Source: an uncultured Armatimonadetes bacterium
GTDB taxonomy: Bacteria; Armatimonadota; UBA5829; DTJY01
Reading direction: 5' to 3'
NCBI GenBank assembly: GCA_963717145.1
Contig: OY970325.1
Location: 1,536,001-1,600,000 of the forward strand
Length of the DNA: 64,000 nucleotides
Both the position numbers and the translations under genes were made by a program. The notes beneath the pieces were generated by a model. The model saw only the letters and a list, made by a program, of their open reading frames with translations, searched no databases and was not told the origin of the DNA. Below, one piece after another: positions 33,568-51,408 of this stretch (its first letter is position 1; every line of letters begins with the position of its first letter).

Positions 33568-34590
33568 GTGAGAAAGGTACTAACAATCGTATTGGCCATG
33601 GCATTCGTCCTGGCCGCCAGTTGCGCCTTCGCGGGCGTGGCGGGCCAGAAGATCTGCATCGACCCGGGCCATGGCGGCTCCGACCCCGGGGCGGTAGGCA
33701 ACGGCCTCTACGAGGATAACATCAACCTCGACATCGGCAACAGGATGTACAGCCTGTTTGTAGCAGACGGTGCTACCACAACAAGGACTCGTTCGACCGA
33801 CGTCTATGTGTCCCTCCAGGGACGCTGCGACGTTTCGAACAACTTCGGCGCCAACAGGTTCGAGTGCACGCACTGCAACGCGGGTGGCGGCGTAGGGACT
33901 GAGACGTTCTCGTACTCGTCCACCGGGACGGCGGCTGACCTCAGGAACCGCGTCAATCCTGAGATCGTCGCCCATATGGGGACAACGAATCGCGGCGTGA
34001 AGACCGCTGCCTTCTACGTGTTGGTGAACACAACCGCCCCCGCCATCCTTGGCGAGGTCGCGTTCATCGACAACGCTGGTGACGCCGCCAAGCTGGGCAA
34101 TGCCACCTATCGGCAGGAAGCGGCCCGCGCATACCTGCACGGCACGCAGTCGCACTACGGTGAGACACCGCACGATCCGGGCGGCGGTGTTCCCGATATC
34201 ATCATCGACAACAGCAGCGGCTCGTTCTCGTGCTCGGCAACATGGGCTACCGGCACTTCCGCCGGCAAGTATGGCGCTGACTACCGCTGGAGAAGCACTG
34301 CCGCGGTCAGCGATGCTGCTACATGGACCCCGAACATCATCTCCGCAGGGGCCTACACCGTCTACGCATGGTGGGTTGCAGGCGCAAACCGCTCGGCGAA
34401 CTCCGCCTATCAGATTCACACCACTGGTGGAGACACCAACGTGTATGTGAATCAGCAGGCAAACGGCGGCGCGTGGGTCAGTCTCGGCAGCCACAGTCTT
34501 GCCACAGGCGGCGCCTGGGTCAAGAAGAGCTGCTGGGCGACGACCGGCTTCGTCGTTGTCGCAGATGCAGTCAAATGGCATAAGAACTAG
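33568..34590 (+). CDS. Amidase_3 plus golvesin-like domain, copy 2
   Basis: DPGHGG, YED, CTHCNA, ILGEV. Confidence 0.93.
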   Translation: MRKVLTIVLAMAFVLAASCAFAGVAGQKICIDPGHGGSDPGAVGNGLYEDNINLDIGNRMYSLFVADGATTTRTRSTDVYVSLQGRCDVSNNFGANRFECTHCNAGGGVGTETFSYSSTGTAADLRNRVNPEIVAHMGTTNRGVKTAAFYVLVNTTAPAILGEVAFIDNAGDAAKLGNATYRQEAARAYLHGTQSHYGETPHDPGGGVPDIIIDNSSGSFSCSATWATGTSAGKYGADYRWRSTAAVSDAATWTPNIISAGAYTVYAWWVAGANRSANSAYQIHTTGGDTNVYVNQQANGGAWVSLGSHSLATGGAWVKKSCWATTGFVVVADAVKWHKN

Positions 34591-34740
34591 GCCACGTCCA
34601 TGATCCGGGGAGACCTGGCTCTCCCCGGATCCATTGCCGGGGGATGGATACCAAACTGACCCAGCCTACCTCCGAAGCAGAGTAAGCAAGTGCACTAGCA
34701 GTAGGACAAACCGTTTGAACTCAAAAGGAGGGTTTGGTAA

Positions 34741-35774
34741 GTGAACAAAGCTCTAACAGTCGCATTGGTAGCGCTCTTCGTGCTCTCGGCCACCTGCGCA
34801 TTCGCAGGCGTGGCGGGCCAGAAGATCTGCATCGACCCGGGCCATGGCGGCTCGGATCCCGGCGCCGTGGGCCAGGGGCTCCAGGAGAAGACGATCAACC
34901 TCGATATCGGTTTGAGGATGCGGATCTGTTCAACCTGGACGCAGCTTCTACGAACATGACTCGAACTACCGACGTCTACGTCACCTTGCAGGGTCGCTGC
35001 GACATCGCCAACAACTGGGGCGCGAACAGGTTCATCTGCAACCACAACAACGCCCACGCTGACACCACGGCGAACGGCACGGAGACGTTCTCCTACTCAG
35101 GCACCGGGACGGCTGCGGACTTGCGCAACAAAGTCAACCCTGAGATCGTCGCACATATGGGCACCACCAACAGGGGTGTGAAGACCTACGGCTTCTACGT
35201 CCTTGTCAACACCAACATGGCGGCCATCCTGAGCGAGACGGCCTTCATCACGAACCCCGCCGATGCCGCCAAGCTCGGCAATCCGGCCTACCGCCAGGAA
35301 GCGGCCCGCGCACACCTGCACGGCACTCAGAGCCACTACGGCGAGGCCCCACACGATCCGGGCAGCGTTGCCGATATCATCATCGACAACTCCAGCGGCT
35401 CGTTCTCCGCATCGGCCAACTGGTCTACCGGCACAATGTCCGCTGACAAGTACGGCGCGGACTACCGCTTCCGCAGCACCGCCGCGACCAGCGATCAGGC
35501 AACATGGACGCCGAACATCACGGCTTCCGGTAGCTGGACCGTCTACGCCTGGTGGACAGTCGGCGCGAACCGCTCTGCGAACTCCGCCTACGCCATCACG
35601 CACTCGGGAGGCACCACTTCCGTATACGTGAACCAGCAGGTCAGCGGCGGCGTTTGGAACAGCCTCGGCGCCTTCACCCTCGGGACGGGCACCGGGTTCC
35701 CGACGCGCAAGTCCTGCTGGGCGACCACCGGCTTCGTCGTCGTTGCCGATGCGGTCAAGTGGCATAAGAACTAA
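34741..35774 (+). CDS. Amidase_3 plus golvesin-like domain, copy 3; apparent 1-nt deletion near 34922
   Basis: Adding one G gives GLRMRDLFNLD (copy 4 has SLRFRDLLTLD); CNHNNA, ILSET. Confidence 0.88.
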
Positions 35775-36042
35775 CCTGCCAGAGTCAGTGATCCGGGGGA
35801 ACTGCGGTCTCCCCGGATCGGTCTTCCCGCGCCCGACTCTCGCGGGTGCACACCAAACTAGCCCAGCCTACCTCCAACGGCTGCAAACCTGGAATGACGC
35901 AACTTGCGTAGCTCGAATGGCTGGTGTCATGGTTGACTGATCGCTCAACAGAAGGAGGTGATCTCCAAGCATATCGACGCTAATGAGGCAAGTGCACCAC
36001 CAGTAGGAAACAGAAGTTCCAATTCAAAGGAGGGTTTGGTAA

Positions 36043-37074
36043 GTGAGAAAGCTACTAACGTTCGCTCTAGTTCTGTCTCTGTCGTTCCTGCTCGCGACAG
36101 GAGTGTTTGCCGCGCTGGCAGGACAGAAGATCTGCGTTGACCCCGGCCATGGCGGCTCCGACCCGGGCGCGGTCGGCCAGGGACTGCAGGAGAAGTCGAC
36201 CAACCTCGACATCAGCCTTCGGTTCCGCGATCTGCTTACGCTCGATGCCGCTACGCCGATCATGACCCGATCGACGGATGTATATGTGTCGCTCCAGGGT
36301 CGATGCGACGTCGCGAATAACAACGGCGCAAACAGGTTCGAGTGCTCCCACTGCAACGCCTTCAACGGCACTGCAAAGGGCACGGAAACCTTCTGCCACC
36401 CGAACGAGACCACCACCGGGTACGACCTGCGCAACAAGGTCAACCCGGAAATGGTCGCCCATATGGGCACGGTCAACAGAGGACTGAAGACTAACACCTT
36501 CTACGTCCTTGCCAACACCAACATGGCCGCCATCCTCTGCGAGGTCGCATTCATCGACAACGCCGAGGATGCCGCCAAGCTCGCACAGGCCAGCTATCGC
36601 CAGGAAGCAGCCCGCGCATACCTGCACGGCACGCAGAGTCATTACGGCGAAGCGCCGCACGATCCTGGTGTTGCCGACATCATCATCGACAACACCTCCG
36701 GGTCGTTCTCCGTTGTCGGAGCCTGGTCTACCGGTACGAGTGCCGGAAAGTACGGCACGGACTATCGGTGGAAGAGCACTGCGACATCGGACAGCCCGGC
36801 CACCTGGACGCCGAACATCACAGCGTCCGGGAGCTGGCAGGTCTATGCATGGTGGGTGCAGGGAGGCAACCGCTCCAACAACTGTGCCTACAAGGTGACC
36901 AACACCGGCGGCACGACGAGCGTGTATGTCAACCAGCAGGCCGGTGGAGGCGCGTGGAACAGCCTTGGCGCCTTCAACCTGAATACCGGGACGGGCTATC
37001 CTGTTCAGCTCTCCAACGTGGCTACCACGGGATTCGTCGTGGTTGCAGACGCTATCAAGTGGCATAAGAACTAG
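36043..37074 (+). CDS. Amidase_3 plus golvesin-like domain, copy 4
   Basis: DPGHGG, QEK, CSHCNA, ILCEV. Confidence 0.93.
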   Translation: MRKLLTFALVLSLSFLLATGVFAALAGQKICVDPGHGGSDPGAVGQGLQEKSTNLDISLRFRDLLTLDAATPIMTRSTDVYVSLQGRCDVANNNGANRFECSHCNAFNGTAKGTETFCHPNETTTGYDLRNKVNPEMVAHMGTVNRGLKTNTFYVLANTNMAAILCEVAFIDNAEDAAKLAQASYRQEAARAYLHGTQSHYGEAPHDPGVADIIIDNTSGSFSVVGAWSTGTSAGKYGTDYRWKSTATSDSPATWTPNITASGSWQVYAWWVQGGNRSNNCAYKVTNTGGTTSVYVNQQAGGGAWNSLGAFNLNTGTGYPVQLSNVATTGFVVVADAIKWHKN

Positions 37075-37222
37075 CTGGTCACATACGTATTCGGGGAGAG
37101 TTCGCTCTCCCCGAGTATCCATTCAGTCTCATACCCAGTGCCAATCGAAAGGTGGTGGTCCGCAAGCACACGGTAGGCACATCCGAAGTACAACAATGTC
37201 ACTACACAAGGAGGATTCGGTA

Positions 37223-37846
37223 ATGAAGAGAGCACTGACATTCGCATTGCTGGTGCTGTTCGTCCTGGCCGCAACCAGCGTATACGCCGGCCTGGCCGGG
37301 AAGAAGATCTGCATAGACCCAGGCCACGGCGGATCCGACCCAGGCGCTGTGGGCCAGGGTCTGCAGGAGAAGACGGTCAATCTGCAGATCACCAACAAGC
37401 TCTACACCAAGCTGATCGCCGACGGCGCTTCCTGTCAGAGAACGCGCTCGACGGATGTGTATGTGTCCCTGCAGGGACGCTGCAACATCTCGAACAACTA
37501 CGGAGCCGCGAGGTTCGTCAGTTCCCACTGCAACGCGTTCGACGGCAGCGCGCACGGCACGGAAACGTACTGCTACAGCGGTGGCAGCACCAATTCCTAC
37601 GATCTGCGCAACAAGACCAACCCGGAGTTGGTTGCCCACATGGGCACCACCAACAGGGGCGTTAAGACCGCCAGCTTCTACGTGCTGGTGAACACGAGCG
37701 CCCCGGCGATCCTCGGCGAGGTCGCGTTCATCGACAACGCCGGTGACGCCGCCAAGCTCGGCAGCGACACCTATCGGGGCTACGCAGCCCGAGCATACAT
37801 GCACGCACTGCAGAGCCACTACGGTGAGACTCCGCACGGCACCTAG
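37223..37846 (+). CDS. Amidase_3, copy 5, catalytic domain only
   Basis: SD aaggagg; DPGHGG, QEK, SSHCNA, ILGEV; stops at HYGETPHGT where paralogs continue. Confidence 0.92.
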   Translation: MKRALTFALLVLFVLAATSVYAGLAGKKICIDPGHGGSDPGAVGQGLQEKTVNLQITNKLYTKLIADGASCQRTRSTDVYVSLQGRCNISNNYGAARFVSSHCNAFDGSAHGTETYCYSGGSTNSYDLRNKTNPELVAHMGTTNRGVKTASFYVLVNTSAPAILGEVAFIDNAGDAAKLGSDTYRGYAARAYMHALQSHYGETPHGT

Positions 37847-42072: not shown

Positions 42073-42272
42073 AGTACCAGGGGAAACTCATCAATCGCGG
42101 AATGTGGTGACCACACTCACTCAGAAGTTTGACCTGCGTCGGGTTGATTCCTTCCCAATGCGGGCATATACACTATGGCAGAGACCGCCTGCTCTCTTGA
42201 ACGGCACTAGCAGGCCTGCTTAGAATGCATGAGTTGCGCCTCTCCCATTCTTAGACGCAGCCCGAGCGCCAC

Positions 42273-42301: not shown

Positions 42302-42339
42302 AAGAACAGCCTCAGAGACACCGGGACAAGGTGATTCAC

Positions 42340-43710
42340 ATGCGTACCAGGTTTTTCAAAGCTACCCTCATACTGAGCATCCTCGGCGCGATGCTCTCAA
42401 CCGGACTGATCGCCGCCAAAGCCCGATTAGCGCCCCATCAGCTCACAATCTTTTTCACCGGCGATGATTGGGGCAAGTACAAGTACTGCATATGACACAA
42501 TGAACTGGGCCTCGGTGGGGCCCCTAGACTGGCTACGTATCTTCGGCAGACGGCAGCGGCCGTTCCAAATCGCCTCGTCATCCATCTTGGCGACATGATA
42601 ATGGACGCCGGGAAGCCCGGCGCAATCCAACTCGACTTCTACCGTTTTGCGTTGCCCTACATGGGTTACGATATGGCCGGGATCGGCGAACTCGAGGTTC
42701 GCGCGTACAAGTACGTTGACGAGCAGTCGATCGCCGACTTGGGCGTGCCTCTGGTCTGTGCGAACGTTCTTCGGGAAAAGGACGGCAAACCACTGGTCGG
42801 TAAGCCCTATATCATCAGGAAGATGCCATCCGGGCTGCGCGTTGCTGTGATCGCCGTCGTTGGCGACGCAATTGTATATCCCGACCTGCAGAAGGAGTAC
42901 GGGGTCCGGGTACTACCACCTGCCGATGTCCTCAAGGCGAACATGGAGAAGCTCAGGAAAGAGGCCGACGTAATCGTCGTGCTGGCGCATGTCACCTATG
43001 ACGGCGCGGTCGCACTCGCCTCGCAGGTTCCCGGGATCGACGCGATCCTCAGCAGCCACCCTTCAACCGTTAAGAAGGATTACGAGAAGGTCGGAGATAC
43101 CGTCGTCATGCACTGCCGGAAGGACTATCAGTACGTCGGCAAGCTCACACTGGACATCAGTGCCGACGGCAAGATCACATCGTCCGCCGGAGAGCAGGTT
43201 CCACTGAACGACAAGCTCGCCGACGACGCGGAGATCGCCAAGCTGATCGAGACTGCTGACAAACGACGATCTGACCACTACGACAGAATGGCCAAGGAGC
43301 AGACCGCTCTGCTGAATGGCATTCAGACCGAGTTCCCACGGTTCGTCGGCGGTGGTCAGTGCGCGAAGTGCCACAAGGATATCGATAAGTCGTGGAAGAA
43401 GACAAAGCATGCCAAGGCGCATGATGCGCTGAAGGGAAAAAAGGACCCGAACGCGTTTCGCAACCCATACTGCCTGTCCTGCCACACAACCGGCTTCGAC
43501 CTGGAGAGCGGATTCAGTCGTGAAGCGTTGACGCCGCACCTGAAGAACGTGCAGTGCGAATCGTGCCACGGGGCCGGCTCCCTGCACGTTCAGAAGCCTA
43601 AGGAGCCCGGATACGGCAAGATTTCCGACGCGAATTGCCTCCGGTGTCACGACAGAGGCAATAGCCCCGACTTCGAGTACGAAAAGTATCTTGCCCAAGT
43701 GCGACATTAG
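42340..43710 (+). CDS. Predicted selenoprotein 1 (456 aa, Sec at codon 52, CIU): signal peptide, UshA/5'-nucleotidase-like domain, tetraheme cytochrome c
   Basis: MRTRFF...TIFFTGDDWGKYKYCI-TGA(42493-42495)-HNELGLGGAPRLAT is in frame with ORF 42595; CAKCH, CLSCH, CESCH, CLRCH. Confidence 0.87.
42507..42523 (+). promoter_or_regulatory. Candidate bacterial SECIS hairpin 1
   Basis: GGGCCTC-GGT-GGGGCCC starting 11 nt after UGA. Confidence 0.78.
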
Positions 43711-43719
43711 GTGTACAAT
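43691..43719 (+). promoter_or_regulatory. Candidate sigma70 promoter of selenoprotein gene 2
   Basis: TTGCCC-N17-TACAAT, followed by palindrome CCGGCGATATATCGCCGG. Confidence 0.4.
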
Positions 43720-43809
43720 AGAAGGTGTTGTTCCGGCGATATATCGCCGGGGTAACCCGTGGGCACGCCACGCGCGCAATACATACATCATTCCGGACGG
43801 TCAATACTC

Positions 43810-45252
43810 ATGAAAGCAAGATTCTGCAGAGCCGTTATCTCGACGTTCCTCCTTGGTGTGATGATGCTTACGTCGGGCATCGTCGCCACTCGCTCCATGG
43901 CGGGGAAGGCGAAGATCACCCCAGGCCAGTTCACCATCTACTTCACCGGCGACGACTGGGCCGGCTACAAAGGTAGCTGTGGGTGACACAGCGAAGAGGA
44001 TCTCGGTGGGATCCACAAAAGAGCAACCTATCTGAAGAAGGCGCTGGAAGCCTCGCCCAACCGACTTCTCATTGATCTCGGCGATCTCGTGCCGGGACTC
44101 GGTGAGCCGGCGGAGATCAAGCTTGGCCTATACAAGACGGCGCTGCCCGCCATGAAGTACGACGTGATCGGCGTAGGCGAACTGGACGTGCGCACTATCA
44201 AGGACACCGGCAAGTCGCCCTTCGATAGCGCCAAGATCCCGCAGATCTGCGCGAATCTGGTGCTCGAAGACACGAAGAAACCGCTCCTCAAGACACCTTA
44301 TGTCATCAAGGAGATGCCGAGCGGCCTGCGCGTCGCGGTCATCGGCATCATAGGCAATACGACGATGAACCCCCAGATGGCCAAGCAGATGGGTGTCATA
44401 ACCATGCCGCCGGAACAGGCCGTCCGCAAGGCTATCGGATCCCTCAAGGGCAAGGCAGACATCTTTGTCGTGCTGGCCCATTCCGGTTACGATGAGGCCA
44501 AGAAGTTGGCCGAGGCTGTCTCGGGCGTTGACATCGTTCTGAGCAGTCACCCGTCGGCCGTTACTACCGACTTCGAGCGCGTGGGCGATAATATTCTCAT
44601 GCACTGCAAGGGAAACAGCAAGTACGTGGGGAAGCTCGTGCTCGACATCGATGCTGACGGCAAGATCACCTCGGCGACCGGCACTCAGGACCTTCTGGAC
44701 GCCAAGACTGAGAAGGACCCGGCGATGCAGAAGCTCATAGATGATACCGAGGCGGCCGTTCAGAAGTTTTACTCGAGCCAGAACCCCAGGGTCGGCGGAC
44801 CTCCTATGACCGGCGACGCATCGCCCCCACGCGAGGACCCCAGGCCGTTCGTCGGCGCTCAGAGATGCATTGGATGCCACTTGTCCATTCACCAAACATG
44901 GCAGAAGACCAAGCATGCCCAGGCGTTCGCGGACATGACCCAGAAAGACCCCAACGCGACGATGAACCCTCATTGTCTCTATTGCCATACAACCGGCTAT
45001 ATGGTCAACGGCGGCTACACGACCGAGACCGAGACTCCCCACCTGCGCAACGTACAATGTGAGTCGTGCCACGGACCCGGCAGCAAACACCTCCGCAACA
45101 CCCAGGAGAAGGGGTACGGCGCTACGACCGAGCTGACATGCCGCAAGTGTCACGATGGCGCCAACAGCCCGAAGTTCGACTACGCGAAGTACCGAGAGAA
45201 GATCGTTCACAAGGCTGCCTCACAGATTGTGAAACCTGCAGAGCAGAAATAA
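43810..45252 (+). CDS. Predicted selenoprotein 2 (480 aa, Sec at codon 59, CGU): same architecture
   Basis: MKARFC...TIYFTGDDWAGYKGSCG-TGA(43984-43986)-HSEEDLGGIHKRAT is in frame with ORF 44089; CIGCH, CLYCH, CESCH, CRKCH. Confidence 0.87.
43998..44014 (+). promoter_or_regulatory. Candidate bacterial SECIS hairpin 2
   Basis: GGATCTC-GGT-GGGATCC starting 11 nt after UGA. Confidence 0.78.
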
Positions 45253-45272: not shown

Positions 45273-45304
45273 AACCAGAGGCTTCCCCTGGGAAGCCTCT
45301 GGTT
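45273..45304 (+). terminator. Stem-loop after selenoprotein pair
   Basis: AACCAGAGGCTTCCC-CT-GGGAAGCCTCTGGTT. Confidence 0.6.
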
Positions 45305-46495: not shown

Positions 46496-46581
46496 GGAAA
46501 CAAGAATGAGAGCGGACAGGTGGATACCCGTCCGCTCTTCAAATCGCTAATGTGTCTGTCGAAGCAAGGGATCTGGGTGTG

Positions 46582-46722
46582 TCACTTGCTCTTCTTTTTG
46601 ATCCGGCCGCCTGTCAACTCCTCGATGGTCTGGGGCCGCTCGAAATCGATGTTGGCGTCGGAAGCATAGCCGCCCTTGCGTGCTGTCTCGGGCATTGGCC
46701 GTGGGGTTTTTGCCTTTGCCAA
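46582..46722 (-). CDS. Putative 46-aa small protein (below the ORF-track cutoff)
   Basis: GGAGGT SD, TTG start, MAKAKTPRPMPETARKGGYASDANIDFERPQTIEELTGGRIKKKSK. Confidence 0.45.
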   Translation of the reverse strand: MAKAKTPRPMPETARKGGYASDANIDFERPQTIEELTGGRIKKKSK

Positions 46723-46872
46723 GTTGCCATCCACCTCCCCTCTGAACCAGTTCTTTCTTACTTACCATGCCCAATACCAGCGGTATCTAAACATGTGAAG
46801 GCTAGGTTGATAGACAACTGGTGTGTTCCACGAAGTGCGCTTGGTCGCTCACCATGGCCTGTCGTTTCGTCC

Positions 46873-48045
46873 TCAAGTCTCAGGCTCCCGAAGGGCCCGG
46901 CATATCAGCGCCCAGGCCTTCTCTCTGATGCGCGTGAGCACGAGGATCAGCTCCCTGCTGCCGGTGAGCTTCATGCCGCGCTCGATCTCCTCCGGCTCGA
47001 ACGGGACGCCGCGCTTCTTGACGATGATCTTTCCCGCATCGAGTTCCCGCAGCCGCTTGTTCACGGACTTCGGAGCAAACGGCATGCTTTCCAGTATCTC
47101 GTACGCGTCCCCGAACGGACTCGGGACGAGATCATCCGCCGACAGGTATGCGATCCGGTCGGCGAGTTTCCACGCGGAGATGTCACGAGCCAACTGCTCC
47201 ACGAGATGCGCCCGCACGATGCAGGCGTCGGGCTCGATGAGATAGCGTCCCGGAGCGCGTACCTCCACCGGACCGACGGTCTCCTGGATCATCGTTGCCT
47301 GCTGGGGAAGAACCGTCGCCCGCTTCTCCGCCTTCTTCAGCCGGCCAAACCAGACCAGCGCCTCCTTGCGTTCACCGCCCTCGGAGAGGAACTCGATCTC
47401 GCCACCGAGCGACTCCAAGTCCTCATCCGGGGTCGCGGGGGAGAGCTTGATCGCACAGTCGGGAACCTCGCGGATCAGTCGCCGGATGAACTCGATCGAG
47501 GGATTGAGATCGGCAAGCTTCCGGACGCGGCGGCCTCCCTCTCTACGAGATGGATCGAGGAAAGCCGCGTCGCCCTCCAGGGGCATCTCCGCGATGTCGG
47601 CGCAGACGAACCGCACTCGGTCCGAGAGGCCATAGACAGCCACATTCCGCGCCGCCATCGCCAGTCGCACGGGATCCCGGTCGACGGCGATCACAGGACC
47701 TCTCGATGCCAGACCGATCGTGTCGCCACCGATCCCACAGCCGAGGTCGAGCACGGTCACGCCGTCAGGAAACCTCTCCGCCCGGTAGCGGGAGATCACC
47801 TCGCTGGACGCCTGCTCAAGGGCCTCGCGGACGAAGAACATCTCGTCGGCACGCGTGAACTTCCGGGCTGCGCGCTTCCGGAGGTCGAGCAACTCGAGTG
47901 CGGCGGAGGAAACATCAGGCGGGTAGCGCTTCCGAAGAGTGGTGAGCCGTGTGAGGAAGTCCCCCGACAGTGACTTCGCCAGGTCGATGAGTTCAGCGCC
48001 CTCGGAACTCAGCAGGAACTCGGCTGTCGGGAGGTCGATTGGCAT
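46873..48045 (-). CDS. Class I SAM-dependent methyltransferase with THUMP-like C-terminus
   Basis: ALEQAS, VLDLGCGIGGD, FLDPSRR, IKLSP, EPD. Confidence 0.85.
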   Translation of the reverse strand: MPIDLPTAEFLLSSEGAELIDLAKSLSGDFLTRLTTLRKRYPPDVSSAALELLDLRKRAARKFTRADEMFFVREALEQASSEVISRYRAERFPDGVTVLDLGCGIGGDTIGLASRGPVIAVDRDPVRLAMAARNVAVYGLSDRVRFVCADIAEMPLEGDAAFLDPSRREGGRRVRKLADLNPSIEFIRRLIREVPDCAIKLSPATPDEDLESLGGEIEFLSEGGERKEALVWFGRLKKAEKRATVLPQQATMIQETVGPVEVRAPGRYLIEPDACIVRAHLVEQLARDISAWKLADRIAYLSADDLVPSPFGDAYEILESMPFAPKSVNKRLRELDAGKIIVKKRGVPFEPEEIERGMKLTGSRELILVLTRIREKAWALICRALREPET

Positions 48046-48898: not shown

Positions 48899-49427
48899 AT
48901 TTGCCGCCATGCCGCTGAACCTCGAACCGATAGAGGCACACCGGCTCGCCATCATATATGCCGGCCTTGCGCATGGCGATCATCACCTGGTCCTCGACGG
49001 TGTCGACACCTTCGAGGTCGGGAAGCAGCAGCCCGCGCTTGTGCCCGCTCTCGACGATGACGCCGTACTTCTTCACATCGAGGTCGGCGAGCCCCTCCAC
49101 GGGCTCGGGCGCGCCCATCACATCGACTGTGTACTCCAGGTCGCCCAGTTCCCGCTCCTGCACGGCATCGAATCGTGGATCGCATGTGGATGCACTGATC
49201 GCGTTCTGCACGATCTCGGCGGCAAGATTCGATTGTGTAGGTTCGATCGTGCCGATACATCCCCTGAGCTGCCCGAACTTCTTGAGGCAGATGAAAGCCC
49301 CCGCTCGCTCAGCCAACTCGGGTGTCACCAAGAGTGGAGCGGGCTTTGTCTTGCCGGAACGCACATACTCCTCGACGGTCTCTCTGGCGAGACTGACCAG
49401 CGCATCATCCTCATTCTCTTTGCCCAT
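48897..49427 (-). CDS. amrA: AMMECR1-domain protein (AmmeMemoRadiSam protein A)
   Basis: LRGCIGT, DPRF, GLLLPDL. Confidence 0.92.
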
Positions 49428-49428
49428 G

Positions 49429-50040
49429 TCATCCCTCCGAAGCAGCCTTCCTGCCGAATCGGTTCTCTTTGCCCTGCATAAGGCGCACGATATTCGAACG
49501 GTGCTTGATGAAGACGTACACCGCGATGAAAACGCCGAAGATCTTGTATGCCGTTGGCGTCGGCTCTCGGGTTTGCCACATCATGATCGGAACGCTCGCA
49601 CATGCCAGCATCGACGCGACGGACACATATCGGGTGGCCGCAAACAACACGATCCAGATCCCGAACGCGATGGCGGCAAGCACGGGTACCAGCCCTATTC
49701 CAACTCCAAGACTTGTCGCAACGCCTTTGCCGCCCTTGAACTTCAGGAACACCGAGAGCGTGTGGCCCACAATGGCCATAACTCCACAACCGACCGCCAA
49801 CCACGCAGATTCCGGAGCGAACTGCTTGGCCATCAGAACCGGCACCAGTCCCTTGAGAACATCTGCAAGAAAAACGGTGATGCCGGGTCCGGGACCGAGC
49901 GTGCGGTAGACATTCGTGGCGCCGATGTTTCCGCTCCCGTGATCGCGGATATCGATCCCGCGCCAGGCTTTCCCGATAACGAGACCGAACGGAATGGCAC
50001 CGAGAAAGTAGCTCAGAATCAGCAGTATGGCGTAAGTCAT
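49429..50040 (-). CDS. plsY: Glycerol-3-phosphate acyltransferase
   Basis: [21 protein letters not shown]. Confidence 0.96.
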
Positions 50041-50076
50041 GGCGTTTCGATCACGATTACGAGTAGGAGTACGACC

Positions 50077-51408
50077 TTATCCCTTACCCCGCTCGCCCTC
50101 CGCCTTGCGCGCGAAGATGCGAATGGGTGTGCCCTCGTACGGATGGGTCCTGCGGATCTGATTCTCCAGATACCGCTTGTAGGAAAAGTGCATCATCTCC
50201 GGGTCATTCACGAACAGGATGATCGTCGGCGGCTTGACGGCCGGCATCGTGACATAGTAGACCTTGAACTGCCGGCCCTTGTGCGTGAGCGGGTGAGAGT
50301 CCACCGCATCGTGGATCATCCGGTTGATCGTGCCGGTCGACAGACGCATCGCATGGCTCTGTGACGCCAGGATCGCCGAGTCGACCGCCTCCCGGACTCC
50401 CGTGCCCTCCTTGGCGGATGCAAACACGATCGGGGCATACGGCATGAATACCATCTCGTCCCGGAGCTTGGCGGCAAAATCCTTCATGCTCGCGCCCTGC
50501 TCTTTCGCGAGGTCCCACTTGTTCACGACGATCACCGCCGCCTTGCCCGCCTCGTGCGCATAGCCCCCTACCCGCTTGTCGCCGTCGGTGATACCCTCGT
50601 CCGCGTCGATCAGGAGCAAAACGACATCCGTGCGCTCGATTGCACGCACTGCGCGTAAGACGGAATAGTATTCGATGGACCTCTGAATCTTTCCTGCGCG
50701 TCTGATTCCCGCGGTGTCGATCAGCACGATGGGCTGGCCCTCGTGCTCGAAAAGCGTATCAACGACATCGCGCGTCGTACCCGGGATCTCGCTCACGATC
50801 GAGCGCTCCTCTTGGAGGATGGCGTTGAGCATCGAGGACTTGCCGACGTTCGGGCGGCCGATGATCGCGATTCGAATCGCCTCCTCAGGCAGGGCCTCCT
50901 GCTCCACGACGGGAGGCAGATTCTCGACCACCTTATCGAGGAGATCGGCGACACCATGGCCCTGAATGGACGAGATCGGGAACACCTCGCCCAGGCCGAG
51001 CGAGTAGAACTCCGCCGCATCGCGTTCCTGCTTGTCGTTGTCAGCCTTATTCGCAGCCAGTAGGACCGGCTTCTTCGAACGCCTGAGGATAGCGGCCACC
51101 TCCATGTCTGCGGCGGTCATACCCTCACGGACATCGACAACGAGGACGATGACATCGGCTTCCTCCATCGCGATGTCGGCCTGCTTCCGAACCTGGGAGA
51201 TGAGCGGATCCTCGTCGCCGAGGACCATGCCGCCGGTGTCGATGAGCACGAATTCGCGCCCGATCCAATCGGCCTCAGCATACAGGCGATCGCGTGTGAT
51301 GCCGGGCGTGTCCTCGACGATCGCGATCCTCTTGCCAACCAGACGGTTGAAAAGTGTTGACTTGCCGACGTTCGGTCGGCCGACGATAGCCACTACGGAA
51401 TCAGGCAT
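50077..51408 (-). CDS. der: Ribosome biogenesis GTPase Der/EngA
   Basis: Two GRPNVGKS P-loops, DTGG/DTAG, KH-like C-terminus. Confidence 0.98.
   Translation of the reverse strand: MPDSVVAIVGRPNVGKSTLFNRLVGKRIAIVEDTPGITRDRLYAEADWIGREFVLIDTGGMVLGDEDPLISQVRKQADIAMEEADVIVLVVDVREGMTAADMEVAAILRRSKKPVLLAANKADNDKQERDAAEFYSLGLGEVFPISSIQGHGVADLLDKVVENLPPVVEQEALPEEAIRIAIIGRPNVGKSSMLNAILQEERSIVSEIPGTTRDVVDTLFEHEGQPIVLIDTAGIRRAGKIQRSIEYYSVLRAVRAIERTDVVLLLIDADEGITDGDKRVGGYAHEAGKAAVIVVNKWDLAKEQGASMKDFAAKLRDEMVFMPYAPIVFASAKEGTGVREAVDSAILASQSHAMRLSTGTINRMIHDAVDSHPLTHKGRQFKVYYVTMPAVKPPTIILFVNDPEMMHFSYKRYLENQIRRTHPYEGTPIRIFARKAEGERGKG

Follow-up and report, generated by a model that had tools for sequence, protein, structure and literature searches.

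The window analysed in this study is a stretch of 64,000 nucleotides from an uncultured Armatimonadetes bacterium (assembly GCA_963717145.1, contig OY970325.1, positions 1,536,001 to 1,600,000 of the forward strand), and window positions are counted from its first letter. It contains a tandem pair of genes, A and B, each interrupted by one in-frame TGA. Both are very probably real selenoprotein genes, predicted to insert selenocysteine (Sec, U) at this codon and to join an UshA-like domain to a tetraheme cytochrome c domain. Gene A has 456 codons, from an ATG start to a TAG stop, and its sole in-frame TGA lies at 42493-42495 (codon 52). Gene B has 480 codons, from an ATG start to a TAA stop, with its sole in-frame TGA at 43984-43986 (codon 59). 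Both were translated with TGA read as U, and their features are as follows:

42340 to 43710, + strand: gene A, predicted UshA-like/tetraheme selenoprotein (NF041198, 228.9 bits; PF13435, 65.6 bits)
42340 to 42420, + strand: basic, then hydrophobic N-terminal segment of A, putative signal peptide or membrane anchor (translation MRTRFFKATLILSILGAMLSTGLIAAK; read by eye)
42436 to 43239, + strand: degenerate 5'-nucleotidase/metallophosphoesterase-like domain of A, approximately residues 33-300 (NF041198, SoxB and nucleotidase models; borders taken from the alignment to B)
42487 to 42495, + strand: C-I-U codons of A, Cys50-Ile51-Sec52 (every relative read from DNA has Sec or Cys in this column)
42507 to 42523, + strand: SECIS-like hairpin of A, 7-bp stem and GGU loop, 14 nt past the U of UGA (covariation)
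43343 to 43707, + strand: c554-like tetraheme domain of A (four CxxCH; Pfam match)
43810 to 45252, + strand: gene B, predicted UshA-like/tetraheme selenoprotein (NF041198, 246.3 bits; PF13435, 58.6 bits; AF2 pLDDT 85.0)
43978 to 43986, + strand: C-G-U codons of B, Cys57-Gly58-Sec59 (translation; aligned codons of relatives)
43998 to 44014, + strand: SECIS-like hairpin of B (selenocysteine insertion sequence, SECIS), 7-bp stem and GGU loop, 14 nt past the U of UGA (covariation)
44842 to 45219, + strand: c554-like tetraheme domain of B, with conserved distal His 369, 427 and 467 (match to 1bvb, E 5.4e-13; four CxxCH)

The two readthrough proteins align from end to end with 212 of 468 positions identical (45%, E 1e-149), and both TGAs fall in a single column, in the contexts YKYCIUH in A and GSCGUH in B. 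The blocks TIxFTGDDW, on the N-terminal side of the TGA, and LGG..ATYL...LGD, on its C-terminal side, are found in both proteins. As read from the translations, both N-termini are basic and then hydrophobic and are located before the TGA, and the CxxCH motif occurs four times at the C-terminal end (A residues 341, 378, 406 and 433; B residues 353, 389, 417 and 444). An earlier note on this DNA had described two paralogues with one in-frame TGA each at the homologous site, conservation on both of its flanks, an export segment ahead of it and four C-terminal heme motifs, and the alignment and the translations bear out this description, positions included. The same note had expected standard annotation to truncate both genes. 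Translation table 11 indeed splits the region into short 5' open reading frames (ORFs; 42331-42495 and 43759-43986) and long 3' ORFs (42595-43710 and 44089-45252). In a collection of 5.8 billion proteins, each of the 22 relatives nearest to B (37-100% identity) is stored at 277-401 aa and covers 57-84% of B; the host is represented there by P0003, the 387-aa ORF 44089-45252. Full-length matches to B begin only with Cys forms, whose identity does not exceed 32%. Source names of the relatives are either "hypothetical protein" or "multiheme c-type cytochrome".

The host genome, a single 5.37-Mb contig that is 98% complete, encodes selA (567 bits), selB (383 bits) and selD (392.5 bits), all above the curated cut-offs. 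A tRNA-Sec (70.6 bits, likewise above its cut-off) lies about 900 bases downstream of selA, and ARAGORN reports it as tRNA-SeC with the anticodon tca. The Sec machinery that the earlier note had named as a check is complete in this one-contig genome. The host selD (L010, G000:C1:4140327-4141253, - strand) itself has one in-frame TGA and is a Sec-type selenophosphate synthetase. Elsewhere in the window and the genome TGA acts as an ordinary stop: it terminates five of the 15 window genes that were checked and, in the whole genome, 584 of the 1170 open frames with 500 or more codons, and no internal in-frame TGA was seen in the 13 neighbouring genes with Pfam matches. A general use of TGA as a sense codon is ruled out, because TGA is the commonest stop of the long frames.

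A hairpin is present at +15 to +31 from the UGA in A, B and five other Sec relatives (7 of 7 aligned Sec genes), with a GGU or GGC loop throughout. In the alignment of these seven genes 49 of 49 cells are paired, and four of the seven pairs show two-sided changes. An equally good result came from just 1 of 500 shuffles, and slid windows yielded zero to one two-sided pair. All Sec-type relatives within the clade carry the hairpin at this position. In the closest Cys relative (L041) similar residues are encoded and the hairpin is missing. The spacing between hairpin and UGA was judged against what we take to be the permitted range for SECIS elements.

Homologues of the two proteins were searched for in 61 genomes (the host and 60 relatives) at E <= 1e-20, and a family match was obtained in 44 of them. 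In a first set of 31 genes read from DNA, which omits one duplicate (L024, whose read stretch is identical to that of L035) and one hit truncated at its N-terminus (L060), the codon aligned with the TGA was TGA in nine and Cys in 22. A second set of 21 genes from 20 further regions gave 18 TGA and three Cys codons, a ratio that is biased in that most of these regions were chosen since one TGA had already been flagged. All 18 Sec genes of this second set have a hairpin downstream of the TGA, mostly with a GGCGGUCU-type apex. Pooled, the 52 genes carry TGA in 27 cases and Cys in 25, and nothing else in either set. The earlier note had proposed to look at homologues for Cys or TGA at the aligned site, and these are the only two states in the 52 genes. 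Moreover, two near-identical orthologues from one genus differ precisely here, with SCGU in one genome (L080, G005) and SCGC in the other (L081, G010), an apparent recent Sec/Cys switch. Contigs of relatives from three public studies, mostly 85-99% alike, span both TGA sites, and no difference at either TGA codon occurs among the 40 difference rows listed out of 252, which argues mildly against the sequencing miscall that the earlier note had considered. The host also has a third paralogue, a Cys form with the motif SCNC (L026, G000:C1:2702185-2703600, + strand), whose clade is common within the class of the host.

A profile search of 1.84 billion representatives (50% identity clusters) at E <= 1e-30 returned 6434 representatives. 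The counts of conserved residues given below refer to the best 150 of these 6434, all with E <= 2.6e-98. Both halves of the profile were matched in one stretch in 146 of them and in two stretches in four. In the Sec column, 142 have Cys, seven have a gap (N-terminally short entries) and one has Ala; the column of the partner Cys57 is Cys in 140.

The N-terminal domain was characterised by structure prediction and by its motifs. An AF2 model of B, built on an alignment of 30 sequences, reached a pLDDT of 85.0 and a pTM of 0.74. Its best Foldseek matches are 5'-nucleotidases, first 3ivd (E 4.7e-24) and then CD73 and UshA (overall range E 1e-19 to 5e-24), in agreement with the UshA-like fold that had been proposed. 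The match to 3ivd has a TM score of 0.54, normalised on the whole 480-residue query, over 311 aligned columns. The Pfam family Metallophos (PF00149) stays below its cut-off (15.3 bits for A). Motif correspondence was taken from an alignment to CD73 and from the canonical nucleotidase paralogues of the host. Motif I reads GDDW in A and B, with Trp instead of His; motif II (GD) is retained; motif III, GNH[DE] in canonical enzymes, has become GELE in A and GELD in B, so that Glu-Leu stands in place of Asn-His, opposite GNHE of CD73; motif IV (AH) keeps its His; and motif V (SSHP) keeps only the first His. The canonical nucleotidases of the host keep NDxHxH, GD, GNH[DE], SH and GGHSH and have neither CxC nor hemes. 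Two of them (L029/L031) form a tandem of their own at G000:C1:1611355-1613550 (+ strand), about 11 kb past the end of the window.

The C-x-C/U motif is located 9 to 11 residues past the motif I Asp, in what we take to be the loop leading away from the metal site of the metallophosphoesterase fold. Conservation differs along this domain. The metal ligand columns are occupied by D48 in 42, D92 in 84, E124 in 73, H224 in 85 and H247 in 66 of the 150 representatives. The N-domain columns conserved to at least 80% are C57 (140), G58, C59 (142), G66/67, R70, G91, K104, Y117, G123, N149 and a few others, and position 126 is Asp or Glu in 149. Of the reactive groups in the N-domain, it is mainly the C-x-C/U motif that appears to be conserved.

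No Pfam match to the C-terminal nucleotide- or substrate-binding domain of nucleotidases was found in A or B; cytochrome models match there instead. The only Pfam domain above its cut-off is Cytochrome_C554 (PF13435), with the scores given above against a cut-off of 20.8 bits, and the match of the C-terminal part to cytochrome c554 (1bvb) extends over the first three heme motifs. The four CxxCH motifs are invariant, and three candidate distal His residues are conserved (H369 in 150, H427 in 147 and H467 in 142). No further His, Met or Lys of the C-domain is conserved to at least 80% in this set. In seven of the 150 the H467 column holds Cys, which hints at a His/Cys heme in some family members. 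The host genome has cytochrome c assembly genes (PF01578, two matches). It also encodes a stand-alone 145-aa tetraheme cytochrome with four CxxCH that is homologous to the C-domain of A and B (L033, G000:C1:5041331-5041645, + strand), a possible soluble electron partner. The fusion of an UshA-like fold to a tetraheme cytochrome c, as the earlier note had it, is supported by the matches to PF13435 and 1bvb and by the two halves of the family model described next. Among 25 longer relatives, the extra domains are only DUF1573/Ig-like surface modules and more cytochrome matches. Three relatives of 1188-1207 aa (P0123, P0124 and P0130) match the profile in two stretches each and are mostly free of Pfam domains, with a weak Cytochrome_C554 match in two of them; they may be duplicated modules.

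The best NCBIfam model for both proteins is NF041198, UshA-like (seleno)protein (UshA_like_PCGU), with E 1e-67 for A and 5.6e-73 for B. The model has 519 positions, and A and B match both its nucleotidase-like and its cytochrome half, in two stretches per protein (the best being profile positions 353-519 in A and 10-286 in B). A and B share with it the C-x-U/C motif after a degenerate motif I and the alternation of Sec and Cys there. The next NCBIfam matches are the multifunctional nucleotidase NF006934 and then SoxB, whose model TIGR04486 gives 61.5 bits for A, 64.1 for B and up to 92.7 for relatives, against a cut-off of 550. The A/B clade differs from the NF041198 family in its local motif, (S/Y)C(G/I)UH instead of PCGU, in retaining more metallophosphoesterase ligands than most of that family and in the tandem arrangement of the genes.

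A family named "UshA-like, CxU" is listed in the 2008 GOS selenoproteome paper (PMC2398784), in a row with the figures 76, 20 and 92, the column heads of which are not part of the text available. It appears again in a 2022 review (PMC9312934) and in a 2026 review that cites NF041198 (PMC13188914). The passages on this family in the three papers give no function and do not mention heme, in line with the earlier note, which had called it a described selenoprotein family of unknown function. A literature search, with subscription journals and supplements outside its coverage, found no functional study of UshA-like/multiheme selenoproteins. The architecture of A and B can be regarded as already known, as that of a listed selenoprotein family with the same two halves in NF041198. 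The word "hidden" in the earlier note goes too far for the architecture: NF041198 spans both halves and the fused Cys form is very common. The close relatives are stored only as truncated ORFs.

Several characterised systems resemble A and B in part. With UshA of E. coli, CD73 and the calcineurin-like metallophosphoesterases, they have in common the fold of the N-domain, GD of motif II, the His of motif IV and the first His of motif V. They differ from UshA and CD73 by the Trp in motif I, GEL[DE], the CxU insertion and a cytochrome in place of the nucleotide-binding domain. With cytochrome c554 of Nitrosomonas europaea (1bvb/1ft5) the likeness consists of PF13435, the four hemes and the three distal His conserved in the A/B family. 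Cytochrome c554 has 211 residues, compared with about 125 in the A/B domain, which is fused to an enzyme-like domain and, unlike c554, has no known link to hydroxylamine oxidation. SoxB belongs to the same fold superfamily and is likewise relevant as a periplasmic protein of inorganic sulfur metabolism; its dimanganese site is intact, and it is not known to carry hemes or a CxC/U motif. SoxAX and TsdA, both periplasmic and of the c-type heme kind, process sulfur compounds at a reactive Cys beside the heme, which is chemistry of the sort proposed for A and B. The comparison with these two concerns only the way they work, as no relation in sequence or fold to A and B was found.

The history of the tandem was examined with a quick maximum-likelihood tree with SH-aLRT support, in which an A clade (6 rows) is sister to a B clade (14 rows) with a support of 98. 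The A/B duplication is older than the splits within the B clade, because the latter includes genomes G001 and G006. At the syntenic locus G001 has a B-type gene only. In three cases A-type and B-type database entries have matching "longest contig" sizes (6680, 4442 and 7987), which suggests that the pair recurs in other genomes. A second, independent tandem of PCGU-type Sec genes (L071, G032:C259:2500-5850) comes from another family of the same class, and both of its genes have the CxU TGA, each with a hairpin of its own. Tandem duplication appears to be a recurrent event in the UshA-like/tetraheme family.

Upstream of A and B, the window has four amidase genes and, in divergent orientation, a GHL10/TPR gene; an M48 peptidase gene lies downstream. 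The M48 peptidase is found downstream in four of five loci of the same family (f1) and a divergent GHL10 glycosidase-like gene upstream in three of five; more distant loci have unrelated neighbours. The shared neighbours are read as plain synteny among relatives. The four amidase genes, at 33568-37846 (+ strand), are consecutive and encode Amidase_3 N-acetylmuramoyl-L-alanine amidases, three of them with a C-terminal Golvesin_C domain, an unusual tandem. Past the M48 peptidase, two ORFs of 473 and 468 aa (46552-47973 and 48958-50364, both + strand) are free of Pfam matches at E <= 0.001. Three further features flank the two genes:

42197 to 42226, + strand: weak sigma-70-like promoter match 5' of A (9 of 12 hexamer positions matched; consensus match only)
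43691 to 43719, + strand: weak sigma-70-like promoter match 5' of B, overlapping the end of A (promoter scan)
45275 to 45302, + strand: possible terminator after B, a 12-bp perfect inverted repeat with a 4-nt loop, then TTTG (read from the sequence)

Three sigma-70-like sites occur in the region, compared with 1.6 expected by chance. The terminator scan did not report the inverted repeat after B, the T-run being too short.

In our best reading, A and B would be periplasmic redox enzymes joined to a c554-like heme chain. The explanation as a whole, which comprises readthrough to Sec, an exported protein of three parts and a periplasmic redox function, is given a probability of about 0.6. The UGA would be read as Sec by SelB and tRNA-Sec, guided by the hairpin 14 nt past it, and each gene would yield one exported polypeptide composed of an export signal or anchor, a degenerate nucleotidase fold and a c554-like domain. 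The four-heme domain would occupy the place of the nucleotidase substrate-binding domain. The Cys/Sec pair may cycle between selenolate/thiolate and a selenenylsulfide or a substrate adduct, and the four hemes would pass electrons to or from soluble periplasmic carriers. That the CxU motif is a redox centre wired to the hemes is, in our judgement, slightly favoured. To our knowledge, Sec is used almost exclusively at catalytic redox positions. The substrate might be a small inorganic sulfur, selenium or similar species; sulfur oxyanion chemistry is weakly suggested, because SoxB is among the better-scoring named enzymes.

Some observations weigh against this explanation. The cut-off of NF041198, 275 bits, is reached by neither A (228.9) nor B (246.3), and both are therefore sub-threshold relatives and not equivalog members; among their relatives, L039 scores 276.2, P0026 287, P0030 395 and the others 122-266 bits. 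Shuffled sequence folds at least as stably as the 60 nt at either hairpin (z 0.62 and 0.04). Since the conserved Leu-Gly-Gly is encoded by the loop and the three inner pairs of the stem, independent evidence for the hairpin comes from its four outer pairs only. No RNA runs containing the locus were listed, and no conserved redox partner gene stands beside A and B in the loci examined. Finally, the Sec clade retains D48, D92, E124, H224 and H247, and therefore its metal site may persist and may do the chemistry.

This last point leads to the alternative that Cys57 and Sec59, together with His60 in the A/B clade, take the place of the His ligands that metal site 1 has lost. A metal held by thiolate and selenolate would then sit beside D92, E124, H224 and H247 and carry out hydrolytic (SoxB-like) or redox chemistry, with the hemes serving the metal. 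Besides the ligands retained in the Sec clade, the position of the CxU loop directly after motif I, at the dimetal site according to general knowledge of the fold and the CD73 alignment, fits this arrangement, as does the order of NCBIfam matches, in which NF006934 and then SoxB follow NF041198. However, the partner ligands vary (H224 in 85, H247 in 66 and E124 in 73 of the best 150), whereas the CxC is near-invariant, and in these representatives most residues at position 60 are Ser, Ala or Thr. Moreover, a metal cannot be inferred from the sequence alone. We consider such a metal site unlikely, with some weight left to it.

A different role for the motif would be that of a heme ligand. Four CxxCH motifs face three conserved distal His (H369, H427 and H467), no other His, Met or Lys of the C-domain reaches 80%, and the conserved N-domain candidates are C57, C59, K104 and Y117. 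Cys57 or Sec59 could on this basis be the distal axial ligand of the heme that has no conserved distal His, which would form a His/Sec or His/Cys c-type heme as in SoxAX and TsdA, for the chemistry of sulfur compounds. A missing distal His needs no ligand from outside, however, as one of the hemes of cytochrome c554 is five-coordinate, and a sequence relation to SoxA or TsdA was not found. The chances of such a ligand are small. An A/B heterodimer, of the kind raised in the earlier note, might hold two such sites, with the Sec or its partner Cys as ligand or reaction partner at each heme that lacks a distal His; this too we regard as improbable.

If the proteins were still phosphoesterases that hydrolyse nucleotides or phosphate esters, the CxU motif would be a structural or regulatory bridge like Cys51-Cys57 of CD73. 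The 5'-nucleotidase fold returned by Foldseek and the two Cys in the aligned loop of CD73 agree with this, but the His of motif I is replaced by Trp and Asn-His of GNH[DE] by Glu-Leu, no nucleotidase substrate-binding domain is matched where cytochrome models match the C-terminal part, and Metallophos stays below the Pfam cut-off. We know of no precedent for Sec in a purely structural bridge, and retained phosphoesterase activity seems very improbable. Broken genes or an assembly error, with the TGAs as true stops and only short 5' or cytoplasmic 3' ORFs made, would agree with the split under table 11 and with the presence of only 3' ORFs such as P0003 in databases, but can hardly be maintained. 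Across many independent assemblies, 27 genes share the TGA at this codon, and a covarying hairpin goes with it; the site is Cys in the remaining relatives; contigs of three public studies show no difference at the two codons among the rows listed; and the 3' ORFs by themselves would lack an export signal, although their four c-type heme motifs require export.

A and B are new members of a listed selenoprotein family and not a new architecture, and the interest lies in the family itself. Ordinary gene calling splits such genes, with the consequence that inventories of selenoproteomes and of multiheme cytochromes in these soil and sediment bacteria miss them. The family is large, with 6434 clusters at 50% identity, and its catalytic signature is obvious: a near-invariant C-x-C/U, frequent Sec and four hemes, for which the literature search returned no function. 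The pattern of conservation draws attention to the CxU loop and perhaps also to the heme without a distal His. The contrast with the canonical nucleotidases of the host suggests the CxU loop, and not the dimetal site, as the first target for mutation. Characterising a member would add a periplasmic redox reaction that is new. Contact between the Sec and a heme, if it exists, would amount to a new kind of heme site, and Sec or Cys at the heme would make the family a natural class of selenolate-heme enzymes, in which a stripped-down nucleotidase fold and the hemes share one polypeptide, in parallel to the His/Cys-heme sulfur enzymes.

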